Origin: Dehalococcoidia bacterium
Lineage (GTDB): Bacteria; Chloroflexota; Dehalococcoidia; Bin125
Reading direction: 5' to 3'
DNA length: 64,000 nucleotides
NCBI GenBank assembly: GCA_965237475.1
Contig: OZ250140.1
Span: forward strand, 2,786,720-2,850,719
Below the pieces are notes generated by a model. The model made no database searches, had not been told where the DNA came from, and worked only from the letters and a program-made list of their open reading frames with translations. A program made the position numbers and the translations under genes. Below are positions 828-50,879 of this stretch, in pieces (position 1 is the stretch's first letter; every line of letters starts with the position of its first letter).

Positions 828-2270
828 TCAGGCTGCGTCTCCGTCAGGGAGTTCCGGCGCGCTGAGCTGGCGGACGTCGAGGTCGACGGGGCTGGGGTCC
901 TCGAGTTGTCGTGAGGCCTCGACGGCGCCCAGCTGCTCCATGCGGCGCGCCTGCACGAGGACGCGTGACTGAAACGAGCCGACGCTGTTGTTGTAGGCCC
1001 GCACGGCCGATGTCAGCGCCTTGCCGACGTTGCCTACATGGTCCGAGTACGTCGCCAGACGTCCGTATAGCTCGCGCGACGTATCGGCGATCTCCTGCGC
1101 GTTCTGCTGGATGTCCTCCTGCTGCCAGGCCACGCCGATGGTCCTGAGCAGCGCGATCAGCAGCCCTGGACTCGCGATCAGCACCTTGTGCTGGCTCCAC
1201 GCGTCTTCCCAGATGGTTGGCTGCGCGACCATCGCCGCGTCCAGAATCGTCTCCGTCGGCACGAACAGCACGACGAAGTCGGGCGACTTGCCGTCGATCG
1301 CAGCGGCGTAGTTCTTACTGCCCAGCGCGCGCGCGTGGTTCATCAAGGCTGCCGCGTGCTGGCTCAACGCCGCCCGCTGCTCGACTTCGTCGTGAGACTC
1401 GTTCGCCCGCAGATAGGCCTCCAACGGCGTCTTGGCGTCGACGGGGACGCTCAACCCGCGCGGCAGCTTGATCACGGCGTCGGGACGGATTGCGCCATCC
1501 TCGGTGACGGTGTGCTGCTGCCGCGAGTAGTCGACATGCTCACGCATTCCAGCGACCTCCAGCACGCGCTCGAGTGTCAGCTCGCCCCAGCGTCCGCGCT
1601 ATTGCGGCGAGCTCAAGGCCTGGCGCAGGCCGGTCGTGGTCGCGCGAAGCTCGCTGATCTGCTTTCCGGTGCTGCCGATCAGCTCGACCACCATGCCGTA
1701 GGCGTTCTCGCGCTTCTCCTCGATCTCGCCGACGCGCTTCTGCAGCTTCTCCAGCGTCTCGCCGACGGGCTTGACCAGGTTGTCGACGGCCTGCTGGCGT
1801 TTCTCGAGATCCGTGTCGGCGAGATCGCGGTCGCGCTTAAACTGATCCTCGGCCTGTTTGCGGAACTCCTCGCTGCTCAGCTGCAACGCATCGAGCGCCA
1901 GCCCCTTGAAGCGTTGCTCGAGGTCCGCTCGGTACTGCTCAAGTTCCTCGCGGCGCGCTCGATGCGACTGCTCCAGCGCGGCGACGGACTCCCGAGACGC
2001 CGCAAGCTCGCCGCGCAGTCGCTGGGTTTCCGTCCGCGCTTCAATCCCCTGCTCGCGGGCTCGCCGGAGTTGGTCCGAGCGCTCTTCGAGCGAGGTGTGG
2101 GCTGCGGCCAGATCGATCTGCGCGCTGGTCAGGCCGTTCGCAGTCTCCGCCTGCGAAGCGCGCAATTCGTCGACCTGCTCGCGTGCGAGCCCCGCGGCGC
2201 GTTGAGCCCACAGCCAGCCGGCGAACCCGCCCAGCGCCACGATCGCCAGCACAACGACTGCGATTTCCAT
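828..2270 (-). pseudogene. rmuC: DNA recombination protein RmuC, interrupted by one in-frame TAG at 1599-1601
   Basis: N-terminal TM helix and coiled coil (1599..2270) continue in frame through TAG into RGRWGELTLERVLE, RPDAVIKLP, VDAKTPL and DFVVLFVPTE (828..1565), which are RmuC motifs. Confidence 0.85.
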
Positions 2271-2414
2271 GCGCTACCTCCGCTTCGATTTCGTGAACGT
2301 CAGGTCCAGGCGAGTTGGGCCGGGAACTCTCGGGTCGGGCGAGCGTCTTGCCAGGCAAGGACGCGACTTCGCCGAGCGTACGGTGAGGTCGGATTCGGCG
2401 TGAGGAGGCGAAGG

Positions 2415-3185
2415 GTGAGGACGCTGCTCGCCACGCTCTGGCTTGCGCTTGGGCTCGCGATCAATCTGGTCGCGTGCTCGTCGACCGATCGAATGTGGGG
2501 TGAGGTGTTCTGGATCGGCGGCGATGTCGACCTGCCCAAGGGCGCCGTGCTGCGCGTCGCGCTGTCGGATGTCAGCTTCGCCGATACCGCCGCGATCGTG
2601 GTGGCTGAACAGGTGATCGAGGATGTCGACTCTCTGCCGCAGCGATTCTCGTTCAGCTTCGACAGCGGCCAGATCGAGCAACGCAACGACTACAGCTTGT
2701 CGGCACGGATTGAGCTGGATGGGCAGCTGCTCTACATCAACGACACGGTGCACAGCGTGCTCACGCGCGGCAGCCCCGGGCGCAGTGACATCGCGGTGGT
2801 CTCCGTCAATTCGACCGATCCGTGTCGCGCGCCGCTGCCCGGCTCCGTGGGCTTCTACGACGACGGCCGCTGGGAGGGGACCACCATTCCTTCGGGCGCG
2901 GTCGCCACCATCTGTATGCTCGACGTCTCCGATCCCGACAGTCCGACCAGCGTGGCCGAAACGGTCGTTCACGACCCCAGTGAGTTCCCGATCGAGTTCG
3001 AGCTGCCGCACGACGGTGTCAGCGTGGATCGGCATCACCGCTATGAGCTGGAAGCGACGATCACGCTCGACGGGCGCGTGCTGTTCGACGACGATGTCCA
3101 CGACGCGCAGCGGATGCTGCCCTTCGAGGTCTGCCCGAGCGTCGATCGGCCACTGTTCATCGAGGTGTTCCGGGTTGGCCCCTGA
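2415..3185 (+). CDS. Lipoprotein with two YbaY-like domains
   Basis: AGGAGG RBS at 2403-2408, GTG start, lipobox LVAC; two copies of LP.GA...V.L.DVS.AD...P..F...Y.L.A.I..DG.LL. Confidence 0.75.
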   Translation: MRTLLATLWLALGLAINLVACSSTDRMWGEVFWIGGDVDLPKGAVLRVALSDVSFADTAAIVVAEQVIEDVDSLPQRFSFSFDSGQIEQRNDYSLSARIELDGQLLYINDTVHSVLTRGSPGRSDIAVVSVNSTDPCRAPLPGSVGFYDDGRWEGTTIPSGAVATICMLDVSDPDSPTSVAETVVHDPSEFPIEFELPHDGVSVDRHHRYELEATITLDGRVLFDDDVHDAQRMLPFEVCPSVDRPLFIEVFRVGP

Positions 3186-3255
3186 CGGACCGACTGGGCC
3201 GGTCGAGGTGCGATAATGGTTCGCGAAGCCCGCACACTGTTCACCGGAGATTGAC

Positions 3256-4845
3256 ATGGAAGTCCCGCTGCTGGTCACCGATTTCCTGCGACGCTCGACG
3301 AAGCTGTACGCCGATTCCGAGGCGGTGGTCGATGGCGCTCAGCGCTTCAGCTGGCGCGAGTTCGGCGAGCGCGTCAACCAGCAGGCCAACGCGCTGCTCG
3401 AGATGGGGATCGGCAAGGGCGATCGCGTCGCGATCATCGCGCCGAACAGCCACCAGTTCCTCGAGACGTTTTACGCCACCGCCTCGATCGGCGCGATCAT
3501 CGTGCCGGTCAACTACCGCCTGATCCCGTCCGACTTCGAGTACATCCTGCAGCACTCGACCGCGCGTGTGGTGCTCGTCGACGCCGAGTTCACTCACCTG
3601 GTCGACCTGATCCGCAGCGCGGCGCCGTCGGTCGAGCACTACATCGCGGTCCCCTACGGCGACGCCGCGATCGCGCCGGGCTGGACCGATTATGAGGTCT
3701 GGATCGGCAGCCAGCCGACCTCTGCCCCGCCGGACGCGGGCCTCGAGGAGACCGACCTGCTGAGCATCAACTACACCTCCGGCACCACCGCGCGGCCCAA
3801 GGGTGTGATGATCACCCACCGCAACGCCTACATCAACACCTACAACTTCATCGCCCATCTGCGCATTCAGCAGAACGACGCGGAGCTGTGGACGCTGCCG
3901 ATGTTCCACGCCAACGGCTGGGGCGGCGTCTATGCGATCACCGCGATGGGCGGCAAGCACGTGGTGCTGCGCTCGCCGGAGGCGGATGACATCTACCGGT
4001 TGATCCAGGATGAACGCTGCACGTTCGCGTGCATGGCCCCGGCAGTGCTGGCGCGGATCCTGGAGTTCGAGCGCAAGGACGAGTTCGAGATCACCACACG
4101 CCCGCGCTTCACGGTCGCCGGCGCGCCGCCGCCGCAGGCCTTCATCGAGCGGCTCGAGAACGAGCTCGGCTGGGAGTTCATCCAGATTTATGGACTGACC
4201 GAGACATCGCCGATTCTGACGGTGGCGCAGCCGAAGCCGCATGTCGAGGTCGGCTCGCAGGCTTACTTCCGCAACAAGGTGCGCGCCGGTCACGATGTGA
4301 TCGGCGTCGAGGTCAAGGTCGTTGACGACGACGGCGCGGAGGTGGCGTGGGACGACGAATCGATCGGCGAAATCTTGGCCCGCTCAAACGTCGTGCTGCG
4401 CGGCTACTGGGAACAGCAGGCCGAGACCGACAAGGTGATCGTCGATGGCTGGTTCCACACCGGCGACATGGCGACGGTTAACGCCGAGGGCTATATCAAC
4501 ATCGTCGACCGGGCCAAGGACGTGATCATTTCGGGCGGTGAGAACATCTCCTCAATCGAGGTTGAAGACGTGCTCTACCAGCACCCCGGGGTGCTGGAGG
4601 CCGCCGTGATCGGCATCCCCTCGGAGCAGTGGGGCGAGACGCCGCTGGCGCTGATCGTGCCGCGCGAAGGCCAGGAGGTCACGCGGGACGAGATCGTCGC
4701 GCACTGCCGGGCCCAGATGGCGGGCTTCAAGATTCCGAGGCGGGTCGAGTTCGTCGAGGAGCTGCCCCGCACCGCCACGGGCAAGCTCAAGAAGTTCGAG
4801 CTCCGCGAGACCTACTGGGAGGGCGTCGACAAGCGGGTGAATTAG
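3256..4845 (+). CDS. Long-chain fatty-acid--CoA ligase (AMP-binding)
   Basis: YTSGTTARPKG, YGLTET, GWFHTGD and DRAKDVIISGGENI motifs. Confidence 0.93.
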   Translation: MEVPLLVTDFLRRSTKLYADSEAVVDGAQRFSWREFGERVNQQANALLEMGIGKGDRVAIIAPNSHQFLETFYATASIGAIIVPVNYRLIPSDFEYILQHSTARVVLVDAEFTHLVDLIRSAAPSVEHYIAVPYGDAAIAPGWTDYEVWIGSQPTSAPPDAGLEETDLLSINYTSGTTARPKGVMITHRNAYINTYNFIAHLRIQQNDAELWTLPMFHANGWGGVYAITAMGGKHVVLRSPEADDIYRLIQDERCTFACMAPAVLARILEFERKDEFEITTRPRFTVAGAPPPQAFIERLENELGWEFIQIYGLTETSPILTVAQPKPHVEVGSQAYFRNKVRAGHDVIGVEVKVVDDDGAEVAWDDESIGEILARSNVVLRGYWEQQAETDKVIVDGWFHTGDMATVNAEGYINIVDRAKDVIISGGENISSIEVEDVLYQHPGVLEAAVIGIPSEQWGETPLALIVPREGQEVTRDEIVAHCRAQMAGFKIPRRVEFVEELPRTATGKLKKFELRETYWEGVDKRVN

Positions 4846-4905
4846 CTGTGACGGTGCCGACTGTGCAACTCATCAGGAACGCCGATCGCGCAGTGCTCTC
4901 GCCGA

Positions 4906-6342
4906 TCAGCATGCTGGATCATTCGGTTGAACACACGAGAGAAACTCGGCTATGCCGGCGTATATCACGTCGATCATGTCGTTTGCGGGATTCAGGTCCA
5001 GGAGGGTCGAGTCGAGGCGTTCGCCGCTGTCCGACGCATTCTGTACGTGGAAGACGGAGTTCCTGAAGTCTCGCAGCGCTGACATACGCTCCGGATCCGC
5101 CGCGATCGCGTCGATGTAGGCGATCGTGAACTCAGGATTTTCTTGTCGCACCCTTCGATACATGTCGAGCGGCGGCACGAGCAGTGCGGTAGTCACCCGG
5201 CCGAGTGCGGCAAGGCGAACGAACTCGGACGGGGCTGCTTCGGTCAGTGTCGAGACGAACTGCGATGTGGCGCCTTGATCAATCGCGTGCACGGAGAGCA
5301 TTCGCTGCGACTGGCGCGTCTCGTTCAGAAGCACTCCTGCCGTGAGCATTAGCGATACGTAACCACCCCACTGCGCAGAGATGTGCGACGCGGTTCTGCC
5401 GGTGAGCTTCAGCTCAGCACGTTGCGTTGGAGGGTCCAGTGGTCTGGAGAGACTCGGCTCCATCGGTGGTTGGAACGTGTCATGGTCAGGGAAGTCTCCC
5501 ACGGTCCGGAGTGCCGAAGTGCTAGTGAGCCATTGTGAAATCTGACGAGCGTGGTCGACTTGACGCGATGAAGGCTCGCTGAGAGCATTGCGAGATGCGG
5601 GTTGCTGCAGTCGATCTGCGATCGCTTGAAGTTCGTCCGTAAGAGACGTGATGTTGCCAGCGTGCTGTATGAAGATTGGATGCTCTGAGCATTCCTTGAG
5701 ATGCATGTACTTGCAGATGAGCACCTGGGCGTCGGGCAGCTCGTCAAGCACCCGGTCCAGCCCGTGGCGCACCTTCTGGCGGATCCGGTTGATCGACTGA
5801 TCGAGCTCCGTCTGCAGGATAGCGACGTTCTTATACAAGCCCGCGGTGAGCAGTTCTGCTTCCGCGCTGCTGATCCCGGGTTTTGGGTGTAGTAGGCCGT
5901 GTCTGAACAGTTTGAGTTTCTGAATAAGTTCGATGTGCTCGGCGCAGGCTTCAGTTGCTCGGCGGTCGTAGAGCCGCGCGCGAGGTTTCGCGTGCTTCTG
6001 CAGAAACTCGAGCTCTGCATAGAGCACTGCGAAGTACAGCTTGACGGGCAGGAAGGTCGCTCGCTGTACGAGAGTGCGGTTCAGGGCAGTGTTCGGAAGC
6101 CCCTGATCGCGCAGCTGCTCGGCTTGGATGCGTTCGACCCACCGTGCGACCGGAGGAGAGGCCGGTGAAGCAGAACGTGGCGGTGGTCCCACACGCTGTT
6201 CGACGAGGGACAAGTGGCGCATGTTGCGGTACGCAGTGCGACGGAGACCCTCCAAGATCACCGTGCGATGGTAGTGAAAGTTCGAGAAGAGATCCGCGGT
6301 CGGCGCTATCCGCGCCAATGAGATTGTTGCTAAATCCGACAT
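4906..6342 (-). CDS. Hypothetical protein with two HEPN-like RxxxxH motifs
   Basis: 478-codon ORF (ATG 6342), more AT-rich than its neighbours; LKLFRHGLLH (5887-5904) and LRDFRNSVFH (5047-5064). Confidence 0.65.
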   Translation of the reverse strand: MSDLATISLARIAPTADLFSNFHYHRTVILEGLRRTAYRNMRHLSLVEQRVGPPPRSASPASPPVARWVERIQAEQLRDQGLPNTALNRTLVQRATFLPVKLYFAVLYAELEFLQKHAKPRARLYDRRATEACAEHIELIQKLKLFRHGLLHPKPGISSAEAELLTAGLYKNVAILQTELDQSINRIRQKVRHGLDRVLDELPDAQVLICKYMHLKECSEHPIFIQHAGNITSLTDELQAIADRLQQPASRNALSEPSSRQVDHARQISQWLTSTSALRTVGDFPDHDTFQPPMEPSLSRPLDPPTQRAELKLTGRTASHISAQWGGYVSLMLTAGVLLNETRQSQRMLSVHAIDQGATSQFVSTLTEAAPSEFVRLAALGRVTTALLVPPLDMYRRVRQENPEFTIAYIDAIAADPERMSALRDFRNSVFHVQNASDSGERLDSTLLDLNPANDMIDVIYAGIAEFLSCVQPNDPAC

Positions 6343-6407
6343 TCGCCCCCGACTGGCTAACACGGATGGGCAGGAACCCGCGTGGGAGATGAGGTCGCTG
6401 TCCGTCC

Positions 6408-7337
6408 CTACGCCAGGCAGCCCGAGAGGAAGCTGTTGACGCGGTTGGTGCCGTCCATGCCGGCGGGGGTGGGGAAGTTGTCGAAGCCGTGGGGGGCTTC
6501 GGGGAACACGTGGAGGTCCGTCTCGTGGCCGGCCGCCTGCCAGCGGGCCGCCATGAAGAGGGTGTCATCGAGCAGCGGATCGAGCGTGCCGACGATGAAG
6601 ATCGCCGGCGGCATGTCGTGCAGACGCGCCAGCAGCGGCGTCACGTCGGGGTCGTCGCGGTCCGCGGGGTCGACGTAGTGGTCGATGAACCATTCCATGA
6701 TCGGGCTGGACAGGATCAGGTTGCGCTCGCCCCAGAGCCGCGCTGAGGGGGAATGCCGCAGGTCGTAGACGCCGTAGATCAGCGCCGCGCCGAGGAAGCC
6801 GGTGTAGCCGTGGTTGTCGCGCATCCGCAACAGCGTGGTTGCCGAGAGGTGCCCGCCGGCCGACTCGCCGCCGATCGTGAACTTGTCAGTGCCGAACTCC
6901 GACTGACCGTTCTCGATCAGCCAGACAGCGGCCGCCTCGCAGTCATCGTTGCTGGCCGGCCAACGATGCTCGGGCGCCAGTCGGTAGCCGACCGAGACGA
7001 CGGCCTGTTGGGTCGCCTGGGCGCGCTCCCAGAGGCGCTCGTCGGCGCCGTCGTGCGAGCCAATCACCCAGCCGCCGCCGTGGATGTGCAGGTAGACGCC
7101 GTTCACGACCTCCGGCACGAAGACGCGGATCGGAATGTCGCCGGCCGGCCCGGGGATGGTGCGCTCTTGGGCGATGTCGTCGAGGCGCGGCGGCGGCGGT
7201 CCGAACGGCCCCCCCTCCGCGAGTGCGTCGCGCACCTCTTGGGGCTCCATCTCGCTCCACGGCTTCGCGTCGGCCGAGAGCGTCTCGATCATCTGGTTCA
7301 GCGCCACCGTCTGCGGATCTGCTCGCATCACACTCAC
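6408..7337 (-). CDS. Alpha/beta hydrolase, HSL-family esterase
   Basis: HGGGW, GESAG, DPLLDD, HGF catalytic motifs. Confidence 0.9.
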   Translation of the reverse strand: MSVMRADPQTVALNQMIETLSADAKPWSEMEPQEVRDALAEGGPFGPPPPRLDDIAQERTIPGPAGDIPIRVFVPEVVNGVYLHIHGGGWVIGSHDGADERLWERAQATQQAVVSVGYRLAPEHRWPASNDDCEAAAVWLIENGQSEFGTDKFTIGGESAGGHLSATTLLRMRDNHGYTGFLGAALIYGVYDLRHSPSARLWGERNLILSSPIMEWFIDHYVDPADRDDPDVTPLLARLHDMPPAIFIVGTLDPLLDDTLFMAARWQAAGHETDLHVFPEAPHGFDNFPTPAGMDGTNRVNSFLSGCLA

Positions 7338-7459
7338 CCTTCACGGTTCGGATTGAGCTCATTATACGAAGACCCGCGATTCGAACAAGCGTACTGTGAT
7401 CGCCGCGGCTCTTGCCGTGCGATGCTAGGCAGCCGGAACCCCGACCGAAAGGAAGGCTG

Positions 7460-7927
7460 ATGCCGATGCCCGATTCGATCGAAGCCACCGCTAACGGACT
7501 GATCTCACGCCTGTTGGACACGACCGACGGCCTGACTGCCGAGCAGCTCGACGCCCGCCCGCTCGACGAGGCGAGCTCGCTCTTCATCCTCGTGACGCAC
7601 GCGATCTCCGCGACCGAATGGAACTTCGTCGAGGTGCTCGCCGGCGGCAACGTTGACCGCACCCGACAGGTCGAGTTCGACGCGCAAGCCGCCGACTTCG
7701 ACGACCCCGCCGGGATGCTGCGTGACCGCTGGGCGAGCGCTCGAGACGCGATCCACAACGCGCTCGCGTCGCTTGATGACGACGAGTGGGATCGCCTGCG
7801 GATGCACATCTTCCAGCAGCGCGAGATCACGGGCTGGGATGTCGTCTGCTCGGCGCTCGCGCACACCGGCGAGCATGTCGGCCATGCCGAGCTCACCCGC
7901 CAGATGCTCGACAACGAAGCGCTCTGA
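7460..7927 (+). CDS. DinB/DUF664-like protein
   Basis: SLFILVTH ... AHTGEHVGHAELTRQ His pattern; GGAAGG RBS. Confidence 0.7.
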   Translation: MPMPDSIEATANGLISRLLDTTDGLTAEQLDARPLDEASSLFILVTHAISATEWNFVEVLAGGNVDRTRQVEFDAQAADFDDPAGMLRDRWASARDAIHNALASLDDDEWDRLRMHIFQQREITGWDVVCSALAHTGEHVGHAELTRQMLDNEAL

Positions 7928-7986
7928 CCCGTTAGCCTCGCGCCTGCACACTCACGCACGCCGAAGAATCAGGAATTGAGACGAAG

Positions 7987-8913
7987 ATGCCAGTTGACCC
8001 CGCCGCTCAGGTGTTGCTTGACCAGCTTGAGGAAGCTGGCGGGCCGGACATTTCGGAACAGACGCCGGAAGAAGCCCGGGCGATGATCGAGGGCTTCGCG
8101 ATGATGCAGCTCGGCGCCCCTGAGCCAGCTGTCGTCTTCGACCGCACCGTGCCCGGCCCCGCCGGCGACATCCCCGTCCGCGTCTACGCCACCGAAGGCG
8201 ACAACCTGCCGGTGCTCGTCTTCTTCCACGGCGGCGGCTGGGTCGTCGGCAACATCGAGTCGCACGACGGCGCCTGCAAGCAGCTGCTGGCCGAGCTCGG
8301 CGACGCGATCGTCGTGGCCGTCGACTATCGCCTGGCGCCCGAGCACAAGTACCCCGCTGCGGCCGACGATTGCTACGCCGCCACGGCGTGGGTCGCCGAG
8401 AACGCCGATCAGATCGGCGGCGACGGCTCGCGGATCGCGGTCTGCGGCGACAGCGCCGGGGGCAACCTCTCGGCCGTCGTGGCCCAGATGGCGCGCGACC
8501 AGGGCGGCCCGGCGATCGCCGCGCAGGTCCTGCACGTTCCGGTCACCGACCACAACTATGACCGCCCCTCGTACAGCGAGAACGCTGAGGGCTATCTGCT
8601 CACGCGCGCGAGCATGGTCTGGTTCTGGGACCACTACCTGCCCAGCGCGGAGTCCGGCCAGGAGGCCTATGCCTCGCCGCTGCAGGCCGACGACCTCTCG
8701 AATCTCGCCCCGGCGCTGGTCCAGACAGCCGAGTACGATCCGCTCCGCGACGAGGGCGAGGCCTACGCGGCCGCGCTGACCGAGGCCGGCAACGAAGTCA
8801 CCGTGCATCGCTACGACGGGCAGATTCACGATCCGCTGATGATGTTCGCGATCAACCCCGCCGGGCTCGAAGCGCTCAAGGAAGCCGCCGAGTTCGTCAC
8901 GTCGCGCTGGTAA
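7987..8913 (+). CDS. Alpha/beta hydrolase, HSL-family esterase
   Basis: HGGGW, GDSAGG, YDPLRDEG motifs. Confidence 0.92.
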   Translation: MPVDPAAQVLLDQLEEAGGPDISEQTPEEARAMIEGFAMMQLGAPEPAVVFDRTVPGPAGDIPVRVYATEGDNLPVLVFFHGGGWVVGNIESHDGACKQLLAELGDAIVVAVDYRLAPEHKYPAAADDCYAATAWVAENADQIGGDGSRIAVCGDSAGGNLSAVVAQMARDQGGPAIAAQVLHVPVTDHNYDRPSYSENAEGYLLTRASMVWFWDHYLPSAESGQEAYASPLQADDLSNLAPALVQTAEYDPLRDEGEAYAAALTEAGNEVTVHRYDGQIHDPLMMFAINPAGLEALKEAAEFVTSRW

Positions 8914-8947
8914 TCACGCGCTGCTAATCACGCGCTGCTAATCACGC
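8911..8947. repeat. 14-bp tandem repeat TAATCACGCGCTGC, about 2.6 copies
   Basis: Read directly; the first copy begins with the esterase stop codon. Confidence 0.9.
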
Positions 8948-8983
8948 TCCGGTAACGACCGGCGCCAGACGTTGGGCTGACCG

Positions 8984-9910
8984 ATGCCAATCACCGCTGA
9001 AGTGCAGGAGATCCTCAAGCTGCGCGCCGCGGCGCCGGCGATGCACACGCTCTCCGTCGAGGAAGCGCGCATTTCGTCCGCGGCCGCGCGGATTCAACCC
9101 GATCCACCGGAGCCCGTCGCCCGGATCGAGGACTTGACGATTCCCGGGCCCGCCGGCGACATCCCGGTGCGGCTCTACTCGCCCGATCCCGATACCCAAC
9201 TGCCCGCCTTGGTGTACTACCACGGCGGCGGGTGGGTGATCGGCGACCTCGACTCGCACGATCCGCTCTGCCGCACGCTCGCCAACCGGGCGAACGTGGT
9301 CGTGCTGTCCGTGCACTACCGTCTCGCGCCGGAGCACAAATACCCCGCCGCAGCCGACGATTCCTACGCAGCCGCGCAATGGGTCAGCGAGCACGGCGCG
9401 GAGATCGGCGCCGACGGCTCACGGATCGTCGTCTGCGGCGACAGCGCCGGCGGCAACCTCTCGGCGGTGGTTTCGCTCATGGCCCGCGATCGCGGCGGCC
9501 CCGAACTCCGCGGGCAGGTGCTGATCTATCCGGTCACGAACCTCGACTTCGGGACCGACTCCTACCGCGACAACGGCGACGGCTCGAAGGGGCTGTCGGA
9601 AGACGGGATGCGCTGGTTCTGGCAGCACTACGTCCGCACGCAGTCCGAAGGCTTCGAGCCGTACGCCTCGCCGCTACGCGCCGACACGATCGCGGAACTG
9701 CCACCCGCCCTGGTGATCACCGCTGAATATGACGCGCTTCGCGACGAAGGCGAGCTCTATGCGGATCGGCTCGAGCGCGGCGGCATCCCGACCCAACTCA
9801 CGCGCTACGACGGAGTGATCCATGGCTTCGTGAGCATGTTCGCGGCCGTGCCGGAGGGCGATACGGCCGTGAATCAGATCGCCGAGTTCCTCAGGGAGGC
9901 GCTCGCCTGA
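8984..9910 (+). CDS. Alpha/beta hydrolase, HSL-family esterase
   Basis: HGGGW, GDSAGG, YDALRDEG, HGF motifs. Confidence 0.92.
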   Translation: MPITAEVQEILKLRAAAPAMHTLSVEEARISSAAARIQPDPPEPVARIEDLTIPGPAGDIPVRLYSPDPDTQLPALVYYHGGGWVIGDLDSHDPLCRTLANRANVVVLSVHYRLAPEHKYPAAADDSYAAAQWVSEHGAEIGADGSRIVVCGDSAGGNLSAVVSLMARDRGGPELRGQVLIYPVTNLDFGTDSYRDNGDGSKGLSEDGMRWFWQHYVRTQSEGFEPYASPLRADTIAELPPALVITAEYDALRDEGELYADRLERGGIPTQLTRYDGVIHGFVSMFAAVPEGDTAVNQIAEFLREALA

Positions 9911-9917
9911 GCTACGG

Positions 9918-10292
9918 CTACTCCTCCATCTGAGCCTGGAAGGCTGCGACGTCAAAGTAGTCGCGCCATCGCGCGATCTTGCCGTCGCGCACCTCGAAGA
10001 CGCCGCAGACCTGCCCCGCGACCTCTTTGCCGCGCATGTGAAAGCGGTCGACCCGCTCATTCAGCACGACATCGCCGTTGACGGCCTGGTGGACGATCTC
10101 CCAGCCGCGCGAGGTCAGCCCTGCCACGCCAGCCAGAGCCTCGCGCACCGCCTCAATGCCCTCGGAGGGGGCCATCGGCATGTTGTGGTAGACGGCGTCG
10201 TCGGTGAAGTAGCCAACGAGCGTGTCGACATCGGGATGCTCGGCGTCGAACTCCCTGATGAACGCAGTCACGACCTGTTCGGGCGTAGCCAT
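9918..10292 (-). CDS. Limonene-1,2-epoxide hydrolase / SnoaL-like (NTF2 fold) protein
   Basis: DAVYHNMPM, VLNERVDRF, GKIARWRDYFD. Confidence 0.85.
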   Translation of the reverse strand: MATPEQVVTAFIREFDAEHPDVDTLVGYFTDDAVYHNMPMAPSEGIEAVREALAGVAGLTSRGWEIVHQAVNGDVVLNERVDRFHMRGKEVAGQVCGVFEVRDGKIARWRDYFDVAAFQAQMEE

Positions 10293-10320
10293 GCCATTGC
10301 CTCTCGGTTGCAGGGTCAGC

Positions 10321-11373
10321 CTAAAGGTTGCTCCGGGCCAGCTCGGCCATCAGCTCCAGCGCCTCGGGCTGGTCGCTGTTGACGGTGACGCCGGTGATGT
10401 AGCTGTCGGCCCAGGCGCGGTAGCGCTCGCGGATCCGCGCCGGCGGGCCGACGAGCGACTGTTCGTCGAGAAAGTCGTCGGGCACCTCCTCCATCGCCTC
10501 CGCCTTGCGACCGGCCATGTACAGCTCCTGGATCCGCTCGGCCGCCTCGCCGTAGCCGCGCCGGATCATCGACATCTTGTGGAAGTTGAGCGTGCGGTGG
10601 CCCATGCCGCCGACGTAGAGGGCGACGTTGGGTTTCATCTTGCGCAACGCGCCGCCGACATCGTCGGTCAGTTCGACGGTGCAGGATGCCTGGACCTCGA
10701 AGTCGGACCAGCCCTTCGGCTGTCCGGTCTTCGCCTCCGCGCGGCGGAAGCCCTCTTCGATCCAGGGCACAAACAGATCGGCGTTGTGCGGCGTCAGCCC
10801 GAGCGGAAGCCAGCCGTCGGCGATCTCGGCGGTCAGCTTGACGTTGGCCTCGGCGCCGGTGCCCAGCCAGATGGGGATGCGCGGATTCATGTGCAGAATC
10901 GAGCGCAGCGGTTTGGCCAGGCCGCTGCTGCCGGGGCCGTCGTAGGGCAGCGAAATCTCCGTGCCGTCGTGCGTGACTGGCGCTTCGCGAGCGAGGATCT
11001 TGCGGATGATCGCCACATAGTCGCGAATTCGCGGGTTGGGCCGACCCCACGGCTGGCCATACCAGCCTTCGACGATCTGGGGGCCAGACACGCCAATCCC
11101 AAGGACGACGCGGTCGTGACCAGCCAGGGCGTCGATCGTCGCCGCGGTCATCGCCGCGTTGGCCGGTGTGCGGGCCGCCAACTGGATGACGCCGGTGCCC
11201 AGCCGAATTCGCTCGGTCAGCGCCGCCGCGTAGGCCAACGGCGAGAGCGCGTCGGAGCCGTAGGCCTCAGCGGTCCAGATCGAGTCGTAGCCCAGCGCCT
11301 CGGCGCGTTGAATCCGTTCAATGGGCAGCCGCATGTCGGCGCCCGAATAGCCGAGCGCGAGTCCGAGCTTCAT
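10321..11373 (-). CDS. LLM class F420-dependent oxidoreductase
   Basis: WTAEAYGSDA, LGTGVIQLAARTPA, GVSGPQIVEGWYG. Confidence 0.9.
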   Translation of the reverse strand: MKLGLALGYSGADMRLPIERIQRAEALGYDSIWTAEAYGSDALSPLAYAAALTERIRLGTGVIQLAARTPANAAMTAATIDALAGHDRVVLGIGVSGPQIVEGWYGQPWGRPNPRIRDYVAIIRKILAREAPVTHDGTEISLPYDGPGSSGLAKPLRSILHMNPRIPIWLGTGAEANVKLTAEIADGWLPLGLTPHNADLFVPWIEEGFRRAEAKTGQPKGWSDFEVQASCTVELTDDVGGALRKMKPNVALYVGGMGHRTLNFHKMSMIRRGYGEAAERIQELYMAGRKAEAMEEVPDDFLDEQSLVGPPARIRERYRAWADSYITGVTVNSDQPEALELMAELARSNL

Positions 11374-11407
11374 TCGCGTCGTCCTTTCACTTCGCCCGCG
11401 GAGTCGA

Positions 11408-12031
11408 TCAGCTCAAGGTGATTTGCCCGCCGGGCCCTTCGATGATCGCGATCAGCGCCGCTGCGTCGCCCTGCTCCACGCGCAGTTCAACGCCGACGGC
11501 TTCGAGGCCGCGTTGGACGACGGCCGGGTCGGGGTGCACGCCGTGGAAGTCGACGAGATGGCAGCCTTTGACGGCGGTTTCGCTGGGGTGCAGAGCGTCG
11601 CCCCAGTCGATCACGAACGGGATCAAGCCGCCCATCGGCGGCGGCCAGCCGGCGATGCTGAGGCGCCAGTCGAGGCGGGTGCCGTCGGCCAGCACGCGGC
11701 CCAGCGGTTGCACCGTGCCCAGGTCGTAGCCGGCGGCGCGCGCCGACTCGACGCGCTGCTCGATCTCCGCGCCGGCCTTGGCGCACCAGTGCGCGACCTT
11801 GGTCCGGTCGGTGAGGTGCATGCCGAAGGGCAGCGCTCCCTCGTGGCCGGCCTGCTGTGGATCCGGTCCGATGATCTCGAGGTAGGCGCCATCCTGCAAC
11901 GCGACGAGGTGGTTGTAGACACCGCGGCCCTCGAAGCGGCCGCCCAGCTCGGCATAGACGCCGGTGGCCGCCTCGAATGCCGCAGCGGAGGCCTGCACGT
12001 CCTGCGAGGCCAGCACGATGTGGTCGAGCAT
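11408..12031 (-). CDS. VOC/glyoxalase-like family protein
   Basis: MLDHIVL ... GGRFEG.G.YNHLV ... YLEII ... PFVIDW; start overlaps the upstream stop (TAATG). Confidence 0.82.
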   Translation of the reverse strand: MLDHIVLASQDVQASAAAFEAATGVYAELGGRFEGRGVYNHLVALQDGAYLEIIGPDPQQAGHEGALPFGMHLTDRTKVAHWCAKAGAEIEQRVESARAAGYDLGTVQPLGRVLADGTRLDWRLSIAGWPPPMGGLIPFVIDWGDALHPSETAVKGCHLVDFHGVHPDPAVVQRGLEAVGVELRVEQGDAAALIAIIEGPGGQITLS

Positions 12032-13230
12032 TACGGCGTCGCCCTTCCATGCGCGGCTTCGAAGGCCGCTTGCGTCTGTTCTCTGAGCTCCGCGTCGCTG
12101 AGCCAATCGAGCGCTGTCAGCGTCATCGCGCGCGCCGCGCGCAGCGTCGCTTCGTGGGCGTTCTCCGACGCGGCGGCGGCGGTGAAGCCGGCGGTGTGAT
12201 TGCCGGCGTCGGCCTCGATGGCGTAGATCGGGTGCAGGCTCGGGACCACGTGCGAGACGTTGCCCATGTCCGTGCTCCCGAAGCCACCGGGCGCCGGGCC
12301 CGCCAGGTCGAGCGCACGCACGCCCTCGCGTTCCGACCAGTGCCGCCCGAACAGCTCGTGCAGCACCGAGTTTGAGGCGAGGTCGCTGTAGCGTGGCCCG
12401 AGCCAGCACAGCGTCATCGCTGTTTCGGTCGCCTCGGCGGCGCCACGGAAGCAGGCCTCGACGCGTCGGCACATCTCGTCGAGCAGTCCCTCTCGCGGCG
12501 CGCGAACGTAGAACTCGGCGGCGGCGCGGTCGGGGATGATGTTCGGTTTGTCGCCGCCGTGGTGGATCACCCCGTGAATCCGCACCTCGGGACGCGACTG
12601 CTGGCGCAACAATCCGATCGCCTGGTAGGCCAGCACGAGCGCGTCGAGCGCATTGCGCCCTTCCCAGGGCGCCGCTGCGGCGTGCGCGTTGCGCCCGGCG
12701 AACTCGACCATGCAGGTGTCGATCGCCAGGACGGGCGGGCTGAGCAGGTCGGCCGTGCCGGGATGCACCATCATCGCCGCGCCGACGCCCTCGAAGGCGC
12801 CCTCATCGATCAGCCGAATCTTGCCTCCGCCACCCTCTTCCGCGGGCGATCCGAGCACGCGGACGCGGCCCTCGATGCCGGTTGCATCGAGCGCGGCCGC
12901 GAGGCCGAGGCCGGCCGCGACGCCGGCCATCGCGATGAGATTGTGCCCGCAGGCGTGGCCGATCTCCGGCAGCGCGTCGTATTCACACAGCACGCTGATG
13001 CAGGGCCCGCCGGCGCCACGCTCGGCCTCGAACGCCGTCTCCATGCCATAGGCCCCGCGTTGCACCGCCCACGAGTTCGCCTCGAGGAAGTCCGTCAACA
13101 CGCCATGCGCGTGAGTCTCTTGGTAGTTCTCCTGCGGATGCGCGTGGATGTCGAGGCTGAGCGCCCGCAGCGCCTCCGACGCCCCGTCGATCGCGCGGGT
13201 CGCGGCCTGCTCGCCGCCCGCTGCGCTCAT
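12031..13230 (-). CDS. M20 family amidohydrolase (AbgB/PM20D2-like)
   Basis: EYDALP.IGHACGHNLI, SPAEEGGGGK, GSTDMGNVS. Confidence 0.9.
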   Translation of the reverse strand: MSAAGGEQAATRAIDGASEALRALSLDIHAHPQENYQETHAHGVLTDFLEANSWAVQRGAYGMETAFEAERGAGGPCISVLCEYDALPEIGHACGHNLIAMAGVAAGLGLAAALDATGIEGRVRVLGSPAEEGGGGKIRLIDEGAFEGVGAAMMVHPGTADLLSPPVLAIDTCMVEFAGRNAHAAAAPWEGRNALDALVLAYQAIGLLRQQSRPEVRIHGVIHHGGDKPNIIPDRAAAEFYVRAPREGLLDEMCRRVEACFRGAAEATETAMTLCWLGPRYSDLASNSVLHELFGRHWSEREGVRALDLAGPAPGGFGSTDMGNVSHVVPSLHPIYAIEADAGNHTAGFTAAAASENAHEATLRAARAMTLTALDWLSDAELREQTQAAFEAAHGRATP

Positions 13231-14045
13231 TCCGTGAACCAACCGCCGTCGGGGTGAATGATCTCGCCCGTGACATATGACGATTCTTCGCTGGCCAGCC
13301 ACAGCGCCGTATTAGCGATCTCGCGCGGCTGGCCGAAGCGCTTCATCGGCGTCAGCGAGAGCACCCACTGGTTGAGCGGCTCGTCGCCCTGGATCGCCGC
13401 GGTCATCGGCGTCTCGATGAAGCCTGGGCCGATCGCGTTGACCCGGATGCCGTCGACCACCAGCTCCTGGGCCAACACCTTGGTTAGCATCCAGACGCCC
13501 GCCTTGGAGACGCAGTAGTTGGCCGCTCCGGCCATCGGGAACTTGGCCATGATCGAGGCGATGTTGATGATCGCGCCGCCGTTGCCCAGCTCGATCATCC
13601 GCCGCGCGCAGGCACGGTCAGTCAGCATCACGCCGGTGAGGTTGACCGCCATCACCTTTTCCCACTGCTCGATCTCTTGGTTGGCAATGAACGACGCGGT
13701 GCGGTCGGGTGCCAGCTCCTGCGCCTCGCCGCTCACGTACTCCGCGTTCGAGACCCCTGCGGCGGCGACGACCACGTCGAGCCGACCGAACTCAGCGACG
13801 GCGCGGTCGGCCAGCGCCTCATTGTCGGCCTCCGACGATGTGTCGCAGCCGATCACGACCGCGCGCCGTCCGAGCGCCTCAACTGCGGCGACCGTGTCGG
13901 CTGAGCGGTCGGGCAGCAGGTCCGCGAGCAGGACATCGGCGCCCTCCTCGGCGAAGCGAATTGCGCACGCGGCGCCGATCCCGCTCGCGCCCCCGGTGAT
14001 CACCGCGGCCTTGCCGGCGAGGGCCCCCGATGGATGTTCCGCCAT
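13227..14045 (-). CDS. SDR family oxidoreductase
   Basis: TGGASGIG, YCVSKAG, NAIGPG. Confidence 0.92.
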   Translation of the reverse strand: MAEHPSGALAGKAAVITGGASGIGAACAIRFAEEGADVLLADLLPDRSADTVAAVEALGRRAVVIGCDTSSEADNEALADRAVAEFGRLDVVVAAAGVSNAEYVSGEAQELAPDRTASFIANQEIEQWEKVMAVNLTGVMLTDRACARRMIELGNGGAIINIASIMAKFPMAGAANYCVSKAGVWMLTKVLAQELVVDGIRVNAIGPGFIETPMTAAIQGDEPLNQWVLSLTPMKRFGQPREIANTALWLASEESSYVTGEIIHPDGGWFTE

Positions 14046-14265
14046 GTCCGCCTCCTGCGCTGCATTGCTTCCGGATTACACGAGCAGATGCTAGTCCTGC
14101 CCCGGATCGCCTGCACGAGCTTGCAGGAGTATGATCGGGTTGCTCGGTTCCGCGTGCAAGACGCCGCCCCGCACTGTGTGGCGGCGTGGAGGCTGTTGAT
14201 GCCTCGTCGCCGACTCATGATCTTGAGCGTCGCGCACCTGATTCGCCTTGGGAGGCCGGTCACTC

Positions 14266-16122
14266 ATGCCTGAGTCGTCGTCCGATGTCGCATCCCCGGT
14301 CATCGAACGCGAACGCGTCACTGTGCGCTTCGCGGGAGACTCCGGCGACGGCATGCAGCTTGCCGGGAATCGATTCGCCGACGCCACTGCCATCTTCGGC
14401 AACGACTTCAGTACGTTGCCTGACTTCCCTGCCGAAATTCGCGCGCCCGCGGGCTCGCTGGCGGGCGTCAGCTCGTTCCAGATCTCGTTCTCGCAGCACC
14501 AGATCTTCACCCCGGGCGACGAGCCGGACACGCTCGTCGCGATGAACCCCGCAGCGCTCAAGTCGCATCTCGGCGCGCTGATTCGCGGCGGCCTGCTCGT
14601 CGTCAACAAGGATGCGTTTACCAACGCCAACCTCAAGAAGGCCGGCTACCCGACCAATCCGCTCAGCGATGGCTCGCTTGAGGACTTCCGAATCATCGAA
14701 GCGCCGGTCACCACCGCGGCGGTCGCCGCCGTCAATGACCTGGGGCTCTCGACCCAGCACGCTGAGCGGACCAAGAACTTCTTCGCCCTCGGGCTCGTGT
14801 ACTGGCTGTACGACCGTGACCTCGAGCCAACCCTCAACTGGATCGAAGAGCGCTTCGGCAAGGTGCCGAACCTCGCTGAGGCCAACCGCCGCGCGCTGTT
14901 CGCCGGCCACGCCTACGGCGAGACCACGGAAATCGCCGACGCGCACGTACGCGTACCCCCGGCCCAGCTGCGACCCGGGGAGTACCGCACGATCACCGGC
15001 AACCAGGCGCTCTCGATGGGGCTCGTGGCCGCCGCCCACCTCGCCGGCCTCGACCTCTTCTACGGCTCCTACCCGATCACGCCGGCCTCCGACGTGCTCG
15101 TCGATCTCGCCGCGCTGCGCAACTTCGGCATCCGAACCTTTCAGGCTGAAGACGAAATCTCGGCCGTCGGCGCGGCGATCGGCGCCGCCTACGGCGGCGC
15201 GCTCGGCGTGACTGGCACCAGCGGCCCCGGCATCGCGCTCAAGTCGGAGGCGATTGGCCTCGCCGTGATGACCGAGCTGCCGCTCGTCGTGCTTGACGTG
15301 CAGCGCTCCGGCCCCTCAACCGGGATGCCGACCAAGACCGAGCAAACCGACCTGCTGCAGGTGATGTTCGGGCGCAATGGCGAGAGCCCGCTCTGCGTGC
15401 TCGCCGCCAAAACGCCCGGAGACTGCTTCTACATGGCCATCGAGGCCGTGCGGATCGCCTACCAGTTCGTCACACCGGTGATCCTGATGTCGGACACCTA
15501 CCTGGGCAACACGGCCGAGCCCTGGCCGGTGCCCGATGTCTCACAGTTGCCGCCGATCGACACCGGCTTTCAGCGCGTCCAACGTGAAGATTTCCAGCCC
15601 TACCGGCGCGACCCGGCGACGCTTGCGCGGCACTTCCAGCCGCCCGGCGTGGCCGGAATGACGCACCGCATCGGTGGACTCGAAAAGGCCGATGTGACGG
15701 GCGATGTCTCCTACACGGCCGAAAACCACCAGCGCATGACGGACCTGCGCCAGGCCAAGATCGACGGCATCGCCGACTTCATCCCCGAGCTCGAAGTCGA
15801 TGGCCCGCCGACCGGCGAGCTGCTGGTACTGTCCTGGGGCAGCACCTTCGGCGCCGCGTTTACCGCGGTGAATGGGGCGCGGCAGCAGGGCGCGGAGGTC
15901 GCGCATGCGCACCTCCAATACCTCAATCCGTTCCCCAGGAACCTCGGGCACGTGCTGAGCAACTACCGTAAGGTGCTGATTCCCGAGTCCAACACGGGGC
16001 ATTTGCGGATGCTGATCCGGGCCAAGTTCCTCGTCGACGCCAAGGGTCACAACGAGGTGACGGGTCTACCGCTCTCGGCGCGCAACGTCGAAGCAGCCAT
16101 TCTCAGCGCTTACGGCAGCTGA
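14266..16122 (+). CDS. korA: 2-oxoacid:ferredoxin oxidoreductase alpha subunit
   Basis: [35 protein letters not shown]. Confidence 0.93.
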
Positions 16123-45426: not shown

Positions 45427-48423
<2,997 letters not shown>

Positions 48424-48503
48424 TGCCCTACCCTCTGCGCAGCGCGCGATCCGCACGCAGCTTTCCCAGACGCCCTCACAACTTGCTCCCAGTCTTCGCA
48501 CAG

Positions 48504-48578
<75 letters not shown>

Positions 48579-50803: not shown

Positions 50804-50879
50804 GGCCCTATCGTCTAGAGGCCTAGGACGCCAGCCTTTCAAGCTGGTAGCACGGGTTCGAATCCCGTTGGGGCCACCA
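50804..50879 (+). tRNA. tRNA-Glu (TTC)
   Basis: GGCCCTA...CCAGC CT TTC AA GCTGG...GGTTCGAATCC...TGGGGCC A CCA. Confidence 0.96.

Follow-up and report, generated by a model that had tools for sequence, protein, structure and literature searches.

HEPN domains are four-helix bundles, often with an insert between helices 2 and 3, in which an R-x4-6-H motif stands at the C-terminal end of core helix 3, where the loop to helix 4 starts; a polar residue (N, D or H) directly follows the conserved arginine, an acidic residue is often found in helix 2 (E-x3-[KR]), and characterised HEPN enzymes carry out a metal-independent cleavage that leaves a 2',3'-cyclic phosphate (PMC3710099). Cas13 builds its HEPN site within one chain, whereas other HEPN proteins homodimerise, and an origin of Cas13 by fusion of two HEPN genes has been proposed (PMC12165695). 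DARNA is an infection-activated abortive-infection tRNase (bioRxiv 10.64898/2026.02.22.705581). In the active sites of DARNA and Csm6 the histidines lie about 8 Å apart. Described here is a gene for a 478-aa protein with two R-x4-H motifs, located in a stretch of 64,000 nucleotides from a Dehalococcoidia bacterium (GenBank assembly GCA_965237475.1, contig OZ250140.1, positions 2,786,720 to 2,850,719 of the forward strand), referred to as the window. The protein is filed as 'HEPN-like' and matches no established HEPN family.

An earlier note, made from the sequence of the window, had presented the open reading frame (ORF) as an orphan protein with two HEPN-like motifs in one chain and as a candidate stand-alone RNase or abortive-infection effector. 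This interpretation is partly supported: motif conservation, internal duplication, the position of the motifs at helix ends and the genomic context of relatives speak for it; the term 'orphan' does not hold, and the HEPN fold is weakly indicated. The features of the gene product are as follows.

4906..6342, minus strand: coding sequence of the 478-aa protein (ORF list, translation, homologues)
5743..6306, minus strand: HEPN-like repeat 1, residues 13-200 (AlphaFold2 helices and profile-profile alignment to repeat 2)
6214..6270, minus strand: conserved N-terminal helix segment H25-R26...E31..R34....R39-N40..H43, within model helix 13-51
5887..5904, minus strand: motif 1, R147-H-G-L-L-H152, consensus F-R-[D/H/N]-x-[F/L]-L-H-P
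5374..5733, minus strand: poorly conserved helical linker or insert, residues 204-323 (model secondary structure and confidence), including a low-confidence loop at 275-295
4933..5370, minus strand: HEPN-like repeat 2, residues 325-470 (full-length and domain-only models)
5047..5064, minus strand: motif 2, R427-N-S-V-F-H432, consensus F-R-N-S-V-F-H-V

Conservation of the motifs was followed in 49 diverse full-length family members, 17-43% identical to the query. The two motifs are the most conserved columns of the family. In motif 1, R147 is present in 49/49 sequences, L151 in 47, H152 in 48/49 and P153 in 48/49, and position 148 is occupied by D (31), H (11) or N (6 of 49); in motif 2, R427 and H432 are each present in 48/48 and F431 in 47/48, and position 428 is occupied by N (38), H (3), K (3) or R (2 of 48). 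The coordinates given for both motifs by the earlier note are exact, and its proposed homologue check came out in favour of both, with R147, H152, R427 and H432 conserved at 98-100%. The bare R-x4-H pattern occurs four times in the Arg-rich query (1.4 expected), which is unremarkable; the strict pattern [LIVMF]-R-[NDH]-x3-H occurs twice (0.045 expected), and only these two strict copies are conserved family-wide. A strict regular expression found both in 64 of the 75 members listed with a length of 400 aa or more; most of the 11 others are shorter and possibly truncated (407-434 aa). A close homologue seemingly without motif 2, P0004 (locus L003, 5128-6700), has a frameshift near residue 420 on a contig of 4x coverage, with FRNSMFHV and the remaining C-terminus intact in another frame; the frameshift is either a sequencing error or a recent pseudogene.

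Conserved residues are found outside the motifs as well: in the first long helix, H25 (44 of 49), R26 (45), E31 (45), R34 (44), R39 (47), N40 (45) and H43 (39/47); near-invariant elsewhere are Y103, E110, E112, Q177 and D181 in repeat 1, and N340, E341, A386 and Y395 in repeat 2. A reading of 'RHG' in motif 1 as a histidine-phosphatase signature was rejected, the family consensus being R-D-x and not R-H-G.

Two deviating sequences are recorded here as separate observations. In L018 (3001-3903), from a Dehalococcoidia metagenome-assembled genome (MAG; Plut_88894), motif 1 reads FRLQFLRP, with Arg in place of His, and the contig stops before motif 2; the first site may be inactivated or diverged. 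In L013, an unannotated 208-aa ORF (1485-2111, minus strand) contains LRLLRNWLTHP, an R-N-x3-H-P motif resembling motif 1, and has no Pfam match; it was the sole candidate from a search of the fetched loci for bona fide HepT-type genes.

The two repeats are homologous and products of an internal duplication, as profile comparison supports. Alignment of the N-terminal profile (residues 1-225) with the C-terminal profile (300-478) by hhalign gave a probability of 94-95%, E-values of 2e-7 to 2.4e-8 and scores of 49-55; some 150 columns were aligned, and the motifs stood in register (vYlaLLYAEIEfY...LkaFRdsfLHP with RVxxALLyEPLRxY...LrxFRNSVFHV). Reversed profiles scored 12-13, and 30 shuffles of 12-column blocks, with the motif block kept intact, scored 23-37; since these controls lie far lower, the halves are similar over much more than the motif, which supports the duplication. 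The same pairing of helix and motif had been proposed earlier as a sign of an ancient duplication.

In the full-length AlphaFold2 model (5-sequence alignment; predicted local distance difference test, pLDDT, 77.8; predicted template-modelling score, pTM, 0.78) the chain is entirely helical and the same seven-helix layout appears twice; the pTM is consistent with one compact body. Predicted helices of repeat 1 span residues 13-51, 63-79, 86-114, 127-135, 137-151 (motif helix), 160-167 and 170-200; those of repeat 2 span 325-355, 359-368, 370-401, 408-414, 417-431 (motif helix), 440-449 and 456-470. Between them, no conserved alignment columns were found from C210 to Q291. A domain-only AlphaFold model of residues 305-478 (49-sequence alignment) reached pLDDT 87.7 and pTM 0.83. 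As the earlier note had expected of both motifs, the predicted positions are the C-terminal end of helix 137-151 for R147-H152 and the end of helix 417-431 for R427-H432, and a loop and further helices follow each motif helix.

When set beside the HEPN description, both repeats show the R-x4-H spacing, the polar residue after Arg and, in the predicted structures, the helix-end position of the motif. The model helices also come in a fitting order: helices 1 and 2, both long, then a short insert helix, the motif helix and helix 4. As candidates for the acidic residue, repeat 1 has E110 (41/49) and E112 (40/49) in helix 86-114, and repeat 2 has E or D at position 390 (37/49), with R393 in 28/49, and E341 (48/49) in helix 1. 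A Foldseek search of the C-terminal domain model against the PDB returned as top match 3jrt (E 0.47, probability 0.60, template-modelling score, TM, 0.35; not significant), which is an integron-associated HEPN domain (PMC3710099). The HepT HEPN toxin 7ae6 ranked 12 and the HEPN-MNT complex 7bxo ranked 25, with no match at E<=1e-3; three HEPN entries thus stand in the top 25 of about 350,000 PDB chains, none of them significant, a result that leans towards HEPN and is suggestive only. The fold check proposed in the earlier note therefore has a divided outcome, with a HEPN protein as top match of the C-terminal domain on one side, and on the other its E-value of 0.47 and no HEPN profile match; HEPN fold membership of the repeats is only weakly indicated by the models.

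The reading that we favour, with a probability of roughly 0.55, is that the gene encodes a single-gene HEPN-like RNase whose duplicated domains pair within the chain as a pseudo-dimer, a single site being lined by R147/H152 and R427/H432. The two HEPN-like domains (about 13-200 and 325-470), with some 120 residues of variable helical linker between them, would pack together in one chain, and the two Arg/His pairs would combine into a single composite RNase site that works independently of metal; judging by characterised HEPN enzymes, cleavage would leave a 2',3'-cyclic phosphate. The gene would have been acquired horizontally and would work as a single-gene defence or abortive-infection effector, the RNase being held inactive until an infection cue, upon which cellular and/or phage RNA (tRNA, rRNA or mRNA) would be cut and growth arrested, an outcome demonstrated for DARNA, likewise a single-gene HEPN protein and close to it in size. 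For this protein we infer the HEPN fold, the composite site, the RNase chemistry, the trigger and the defence phenotype from motifs, models, context and analogy. As a speculation, gating or the binding of substrate or trigger might fall to the first helix, which is strongly conserved (H25...H43), or to the variable linker.

Four points weigh against this reading. No significant fold match was obtained with Foldseek, all E-values being at least 0.4 at TM of about 0.35. No HEPN-family profile or sequence match was found in Pfam, NCBIfam, PADLOC or the PDB, with the query, the 49 members one by one, consensus sequences and the C-terminal domain profile as input. A constitutively paired two-HEPN RNase without an antitoxin would need a gating mechanism. 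In the window, finally, the gene is solitary among metabolic genes and outside any defence island.

The individual searches were as follows. The full-length model against the PDB gave a best E-value of 0.44, with long-helix membrane proteins dominating, and was uninformative; EsCas13d, at rank 9 of this search (E 0.86), was set aside as noise. Against BFVD, the C-terminal domain model had no match. The 49 members, scanned with Pfam and PADLOC, and the consensus sequences, scanned with Pfam, gave scattered chance matches only, PDB profile searches (full-length and C-terminal domain) gave only coiled-coil and PE-protein noise, and the weakest family members, scanned with Pfam for a transitive link to any known HEPN family, yielded no such link above threshold. 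Isolated sub-threshold Pfam matches were HepT-like (E 0.11) and, in a distant member, DUF4145 (E 0.12).

A different view of the same data is that the protein is a duplicated helical bundle outside HEPN, its conserved Arg and His serving ligand or nucleotide binding, phosphotransfer or structure, for instance in a sensor, scaffold or regulator carried on mobile or defence islands. The absence of any significant structural or profile link to HEPN suits this view, as do the shortness of R-x4-H, the ease with which helical bundles match each other, and the equal conservation of H25, R26, E31, R34, R39, N40, Y103, Q177, D181, N340, E341 and Y395. It is nevertheless unlikely in our judgement: three independent elements of the HEPN definition (spacing, polar residue, helix end) are found, and found twice per protein; HEPN proteins take ranks 1, 12 and 25 of about 350,000 PDB chains in the C-terminal domain search; and embedding in restriction-modification (R-M) operons is the typical habitat of abortive-infection (Abi) HEPN proteins (PMC3710099).

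If the repeats are HEPN-like, the sites might form between chains, in head-to-tail dimers or higher oligomers, the tandem arrangement then doubling the number of sites. Most HEPN proteins dimerise, DARNA (PD-T7-3), an all-alpha HEPN protein of 456 aa that gives defence from a single gene, works as a dodecamer (bioRxiv 10.64898/2026.02.22.705581), and the linker of 120 residues is long enough for either geometry. Both motifs are nevertheless kept together in nearly all full-length members and the single-chain model is compact (pTM 0.78), and we regard the intermolecular arrangement as distinctly unlikely.

The pseudo-dimer reading, as far as it concerns defence, draws on the surroundings of relatives. 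About 12 of 20 independent loci contain R-M, defence or toxin-antitoxin genes within a few kb, in agreement with the defence-island context that the earlier note had listed among its checks; the remaining loci show transposases only, ambiguous neighbours (L001, L024) or none of these (window, L009, L016, L023). The loci are listed below; X stands for the family gene.

L007: hsdM, ThsB-like TIR, IS200-like, ThsB-like TIR, X, hsdS (overlapping X), DUF433/PIN-like and RHH/PIN pairs, hsdR
L026: hsdR, PDDEXK, hsdM/S fusion, X, with a 4-bp overlap
L012: X among repeated type III mod copies, beside res
L011: MmeI-type enzyme
L014, L017: N6-methyltransferases of 940-970 aa; in L017 also GmrSD
L010: serine recombinase, GmrSD_C protein, HNH
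L015: RES toxin directly upstream
L003: PIN/PhD, methylase fragment, SNase, PIN_12, integrase
L021: ParE/HTH pair
L027: reverse transcriptase, AAA_15/21 ATPases and UvrD helicase (Gabija-like), PIN-TPR protein
L008, L013: transposases

In L012, a Poribacteria MAG, three type III mod copies lie around the family gene (7434-9447, 11491-13501 and 13613-15575), each apparently broken into two ORFs, one N-terminal of 176 aa and the other of about 500 aa; they may be shufflable or phase-variable alleles, or assembly frameshifts. A ThsB-like TIR gene is found directly upstream of the family gene in L007 (TIR at 6794-7729 and 9208-9906) and in L018 (TIR at 2216-2854); between these loci, identity is 38% for the family proteins and 38-51% for the TIR proteins. 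The TIR and family genes of L007 are all nested between hsdM and hsdS. TIR plus family gene may represent a two-gene TIR-plus-HEPN-like variant.

Such neighbours raise the possibility of a toxin or addiction module of mobile elements, or of a multi-gene effector (for example a TIR/Thoeris-like pair), the partner of which is missing in the window. To its credit are the TIR genes directly upstream in the two divergent loci L007 and L018, transposases or recombinases flanking the gene in L008, L010, L011 and L013, and small antitoxin-like genes near it in L021, L024 and L026. All-against-all comparison of neighbours in the 14 loci with enough flank revealed no conserved partner gene, however; most loci, the window included, have neither a TIR gene nor a small upstream ORF, so that a Thoeris-like pairing is not obligate (TIR directly upstream in L007 and L018 only); and the window's intergenic gaps leave too little room for an RNA antitoxin, with no abiF-type RNA found by Rfam. 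A missing partner is, on balance, improbable.

A self-contained gene also agrees with the repeat and RNA scans. In 13 related loci, Tandem Repeats Finder detected no arrays or tandem repeats up to 3 kb either side of the gene, and Rfam detected only tRNA and rRNA families in the window and 11 loci. A CRISPR array, a tandem-repeat RNA antitoxin and a known non-coding RNA beside the gene were rejected on these scans. Low GC content at third codon positions (GC3), family proteins 81-84% identical in different MAGs, and R-M/defence neighbours fit a horizontally mobile, self-contained defence-island gene.

The family is rare and previously unannotated, and Pfam, NCBIfam and PADLOC all miss it; scans of the query against these three gave no match. 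A word-index search of 5.8 billion proteins returned only four homologues (29-44% identity), and a second, with the 49-member alignment as input, returned only six proteins and added nothing. HMMER, run exhaustively with the family profile over 1.84 billion cluster representatives, returned 169 at E<=1e-3, of which 73 at E<=1e-30. The protein can hence not be called an orphan, as it had been, with 169 representative clusters in public metagenomes and MAGs, though it belongs to no annotated family. Most full-length members are 470-495 aa long and match end to end; clusters are tiny (1-4 members each), and the sole source name found is 'hypothetical protein [Candidatus Poribacteria bacterium]'.

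MAG labels of the species-representative genomes that carry family members are Chloroflexota, Dehalococcoidia, Caldilineaceae, Candidatus Poribacteria, Rhodothermaceae and Candidatus Spongiisociaceae (Acidimicrobiia), a distribution that is patchy across phyla. These lineages are typical of marine sponge and coral symbionts, and the organism of the window presumably belongs to one of them. No relatives were found in IMG/VR viral contigs, JGI metagenome contigs, PLSDB plasmids or GenBank phages; the gene is thus not known on sequenced phages or plasmids. GC3 of the family gene is below that of its neighbours in most loci (e.g. L014, 0.35 vs about 0.9), and family proteins in different MAGs are 81-84% identical in the pairs L011/L013 and L016/L017. 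In the latter pair (9995-11461 in both; 84% identical) the MAG labels are Caldilineaceae vs Dehalococcoidia and the neighbours differ, which suggests recent horizontal transfer or mis-binning.

In the window, the start codon ATG is at 6340-6342 and the stop codon at 4906-4908; the protein begins MSDLATISLARI. An in-frame GTG upstream, at 6363, would add 7 residues (485 aa); the ATG at 6342 was taken as the start because homologues align from Met onward. The ORF is held to be a real gene because of full-length homologues at 29-44% identity and the 169 representative clusters. Its immediate surroundings are listed below.

6346..6350, minus strand: GGGGG run, possible Shine-Dalgarno element (read from the sequence just upstream of the ATG)
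3256-4845, plus strand: AMP-binding (AMP-dependent) ligase, convergent with the ORF
6408-7337, minus strand: Abhydrolase_3 esterase, upstream neighbour on the strand of the ORF
7987-8913, plus strand: Abhydrolase_3 esterase
8984-9910, plus strand: Abhydrolase_3 esterase

Intergenic gaps measure 65 bp to the upstream esterase (6343-6407) and 60 bp to the convergent ligase. GC content in 500-nt windows is 0.58-0.61 in the ORF region vs 0.65-0.70 in the flanks; over the whole ORF it is 0.59, with GC3 of 0.68, and GC3 is 0.86-0.92 in the flanking AMP-ligase and esterase genes. The composition of the gene is foreign relative to its neighbours, and the description of a more AT-rich ORF between housekeeping-type genes agrees with these values and with the metabolic neighbours. 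No sigma-70-like promoter or terminator was found in window 4500-7600. The sequencing runs that contain the sequence are of unspecified type, none bearing an RNA label. A repeat search of window 4300-7000 gave chance-level repeats only, with no convincing flanking direct or inverted repeats, and insertion scars around the ORF were rejected on that ground. The statement that no CRISPR array or MNT partner lies nearby was borne out: the stretch 2000-9500 contains no tandem repeat or CRISPR array, and no MNT-type gene was seen among the window neighbours (esterase, AMP-ligase). Rfam found no non-coding RNA near the gene in the window.

Other features of the window were noted in passing. Three paralogous Abhydrolase_3 (hormone-sensitive-lipase-type) esterases cluster beside the ORF, and in the identical contig L004 SnoaL/LEH, luciferase-like and DinB genes are found close to them; the group may be a small cluster for the degradation of xenobiotics or esters. 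The longest ORF here, 1188-3185 (plus strand; 665 aa; GC3 0.76), has only a partial YscW match, and in the same region of L004 the gene caller gives two genes, one of 256 aa with a YscW domain and another of 223 aa; the 665-aa ORF is probably an over-call typical of high-GC DNA. RNA genes of the window are as follows.

45427-48425, plus strand: complete 23S rRNA gene
48504-48578: tRNA-Met(CAT), after the 23S rRNA gene
50804-50879: tRNA-Glu(TTC), 2.2 kb beyond tRNA-Met

Neither 16S nor 5S rRNA was detected anywhere in the 64-kb window; with none beside the 23S gene, the rRNA genes appear unlinked in this genome.

If the pseudo-dimer reading is true, a non-CRISPR protein would supply both halves of a HEPN RNase from one chain by internal duplication, which would bear on the proposed two-HEPN-fusion origin of Cas13 (PMC12165695), and the catalogue of defence and abortive-infection systems would gain a new single-gene family. 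The protein would also show how a pre-assembled HEPN site can stay silent without an antitoxin, and a 478-aa monomeric RNase with a switchable site could possibly be useful as a compact RNA-cleavage module. The apparent confinement of the family largely to sponge- and coral-symbiont-type lineages of several phyla points to horizontal exchange of immunity genes in that community. The chance is slim indeed that the family represents, as a non-CRISPR survivor, the compact two-HEPN enzymes proposed as ancestral to Cas13, or is closely analogous to them; it would then be a duplication-born, single-chain pseudo-dimeric HEPN RNase gated by a trigger or RNA and circulating in marine-invertebrate symbionts.

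By analogy, the family would work like Cas13, AbiD/F, HepT-MntA and DARNA, and stands outside each of them. With Cas13, especially the compact Cas13an clade (PMC12165695), it shares two HEPN-type R-x4-H motifs in one all-alpha chain; it differs in having no adjacent CRISPR array in the loci examined and no detected sequence similarity, and in that its two domains are demonstrably, by profile alignment, duplicates of each other. With DARNA/PD-T7-3 it shares a stand-alone all-alpha chain of about 55 kDa, an R-x4-H motif of HEPN type and no antitoxin gene; DARNA, in contrast, has one N-terminal HEPN and a non-catalytic Pds5-like C-terminal domain, and its sites form by homodimerisation inside the dodecamer. 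PADLOC-DB v2, which covers PD-T systems, assigned 0 families to the query and gave scattered single chance matches in the 49 members.

The Abi and R-M-embedded HEPN families (AbiD/F = Abi_2, AbiJ, AbiU2, DUF4145, PrrC/RloC; PMC3710099) resemble the present one in R-[N/D/H]-x3-H where helix 3 ends, and their genes lie, like those of the family's relatives, inside or beside type I R-M operons and defence genes; they have one HEPN domain per chain. For AbiD/F, no Pfam Abi_2 and no PADLOC AbiD/AbiF match was obtained, and no abiF RNA (RF03085) was found in the window and 11 loci. Structurally, the C-terminal repeat has its best matches, none of them significant, in HepT-MntA and the integron cassette HEPN Vpc_cass2 (PDB 3jrt); these homodimerising proteins are small (about 130-170 aa) and single-domain, and HepT needs an adjacent MNT antitoxin, which is absent beside the family gene. 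Csx1 of the MJ1666 type likewise has a HEPN dyad in one polypeptide outside Cas13 (PMC3710099); it is fused to a CARF/Rossmann sensor and is CRISPR-associated, whereas the family has neither feature. The tandem-HEPN precedents, Cas13 and MJ1666-type Csx1, are both CRISPR-linked, and a stand-alone, non-CRISPR, duplicated HEPN-like protein is what is new here.

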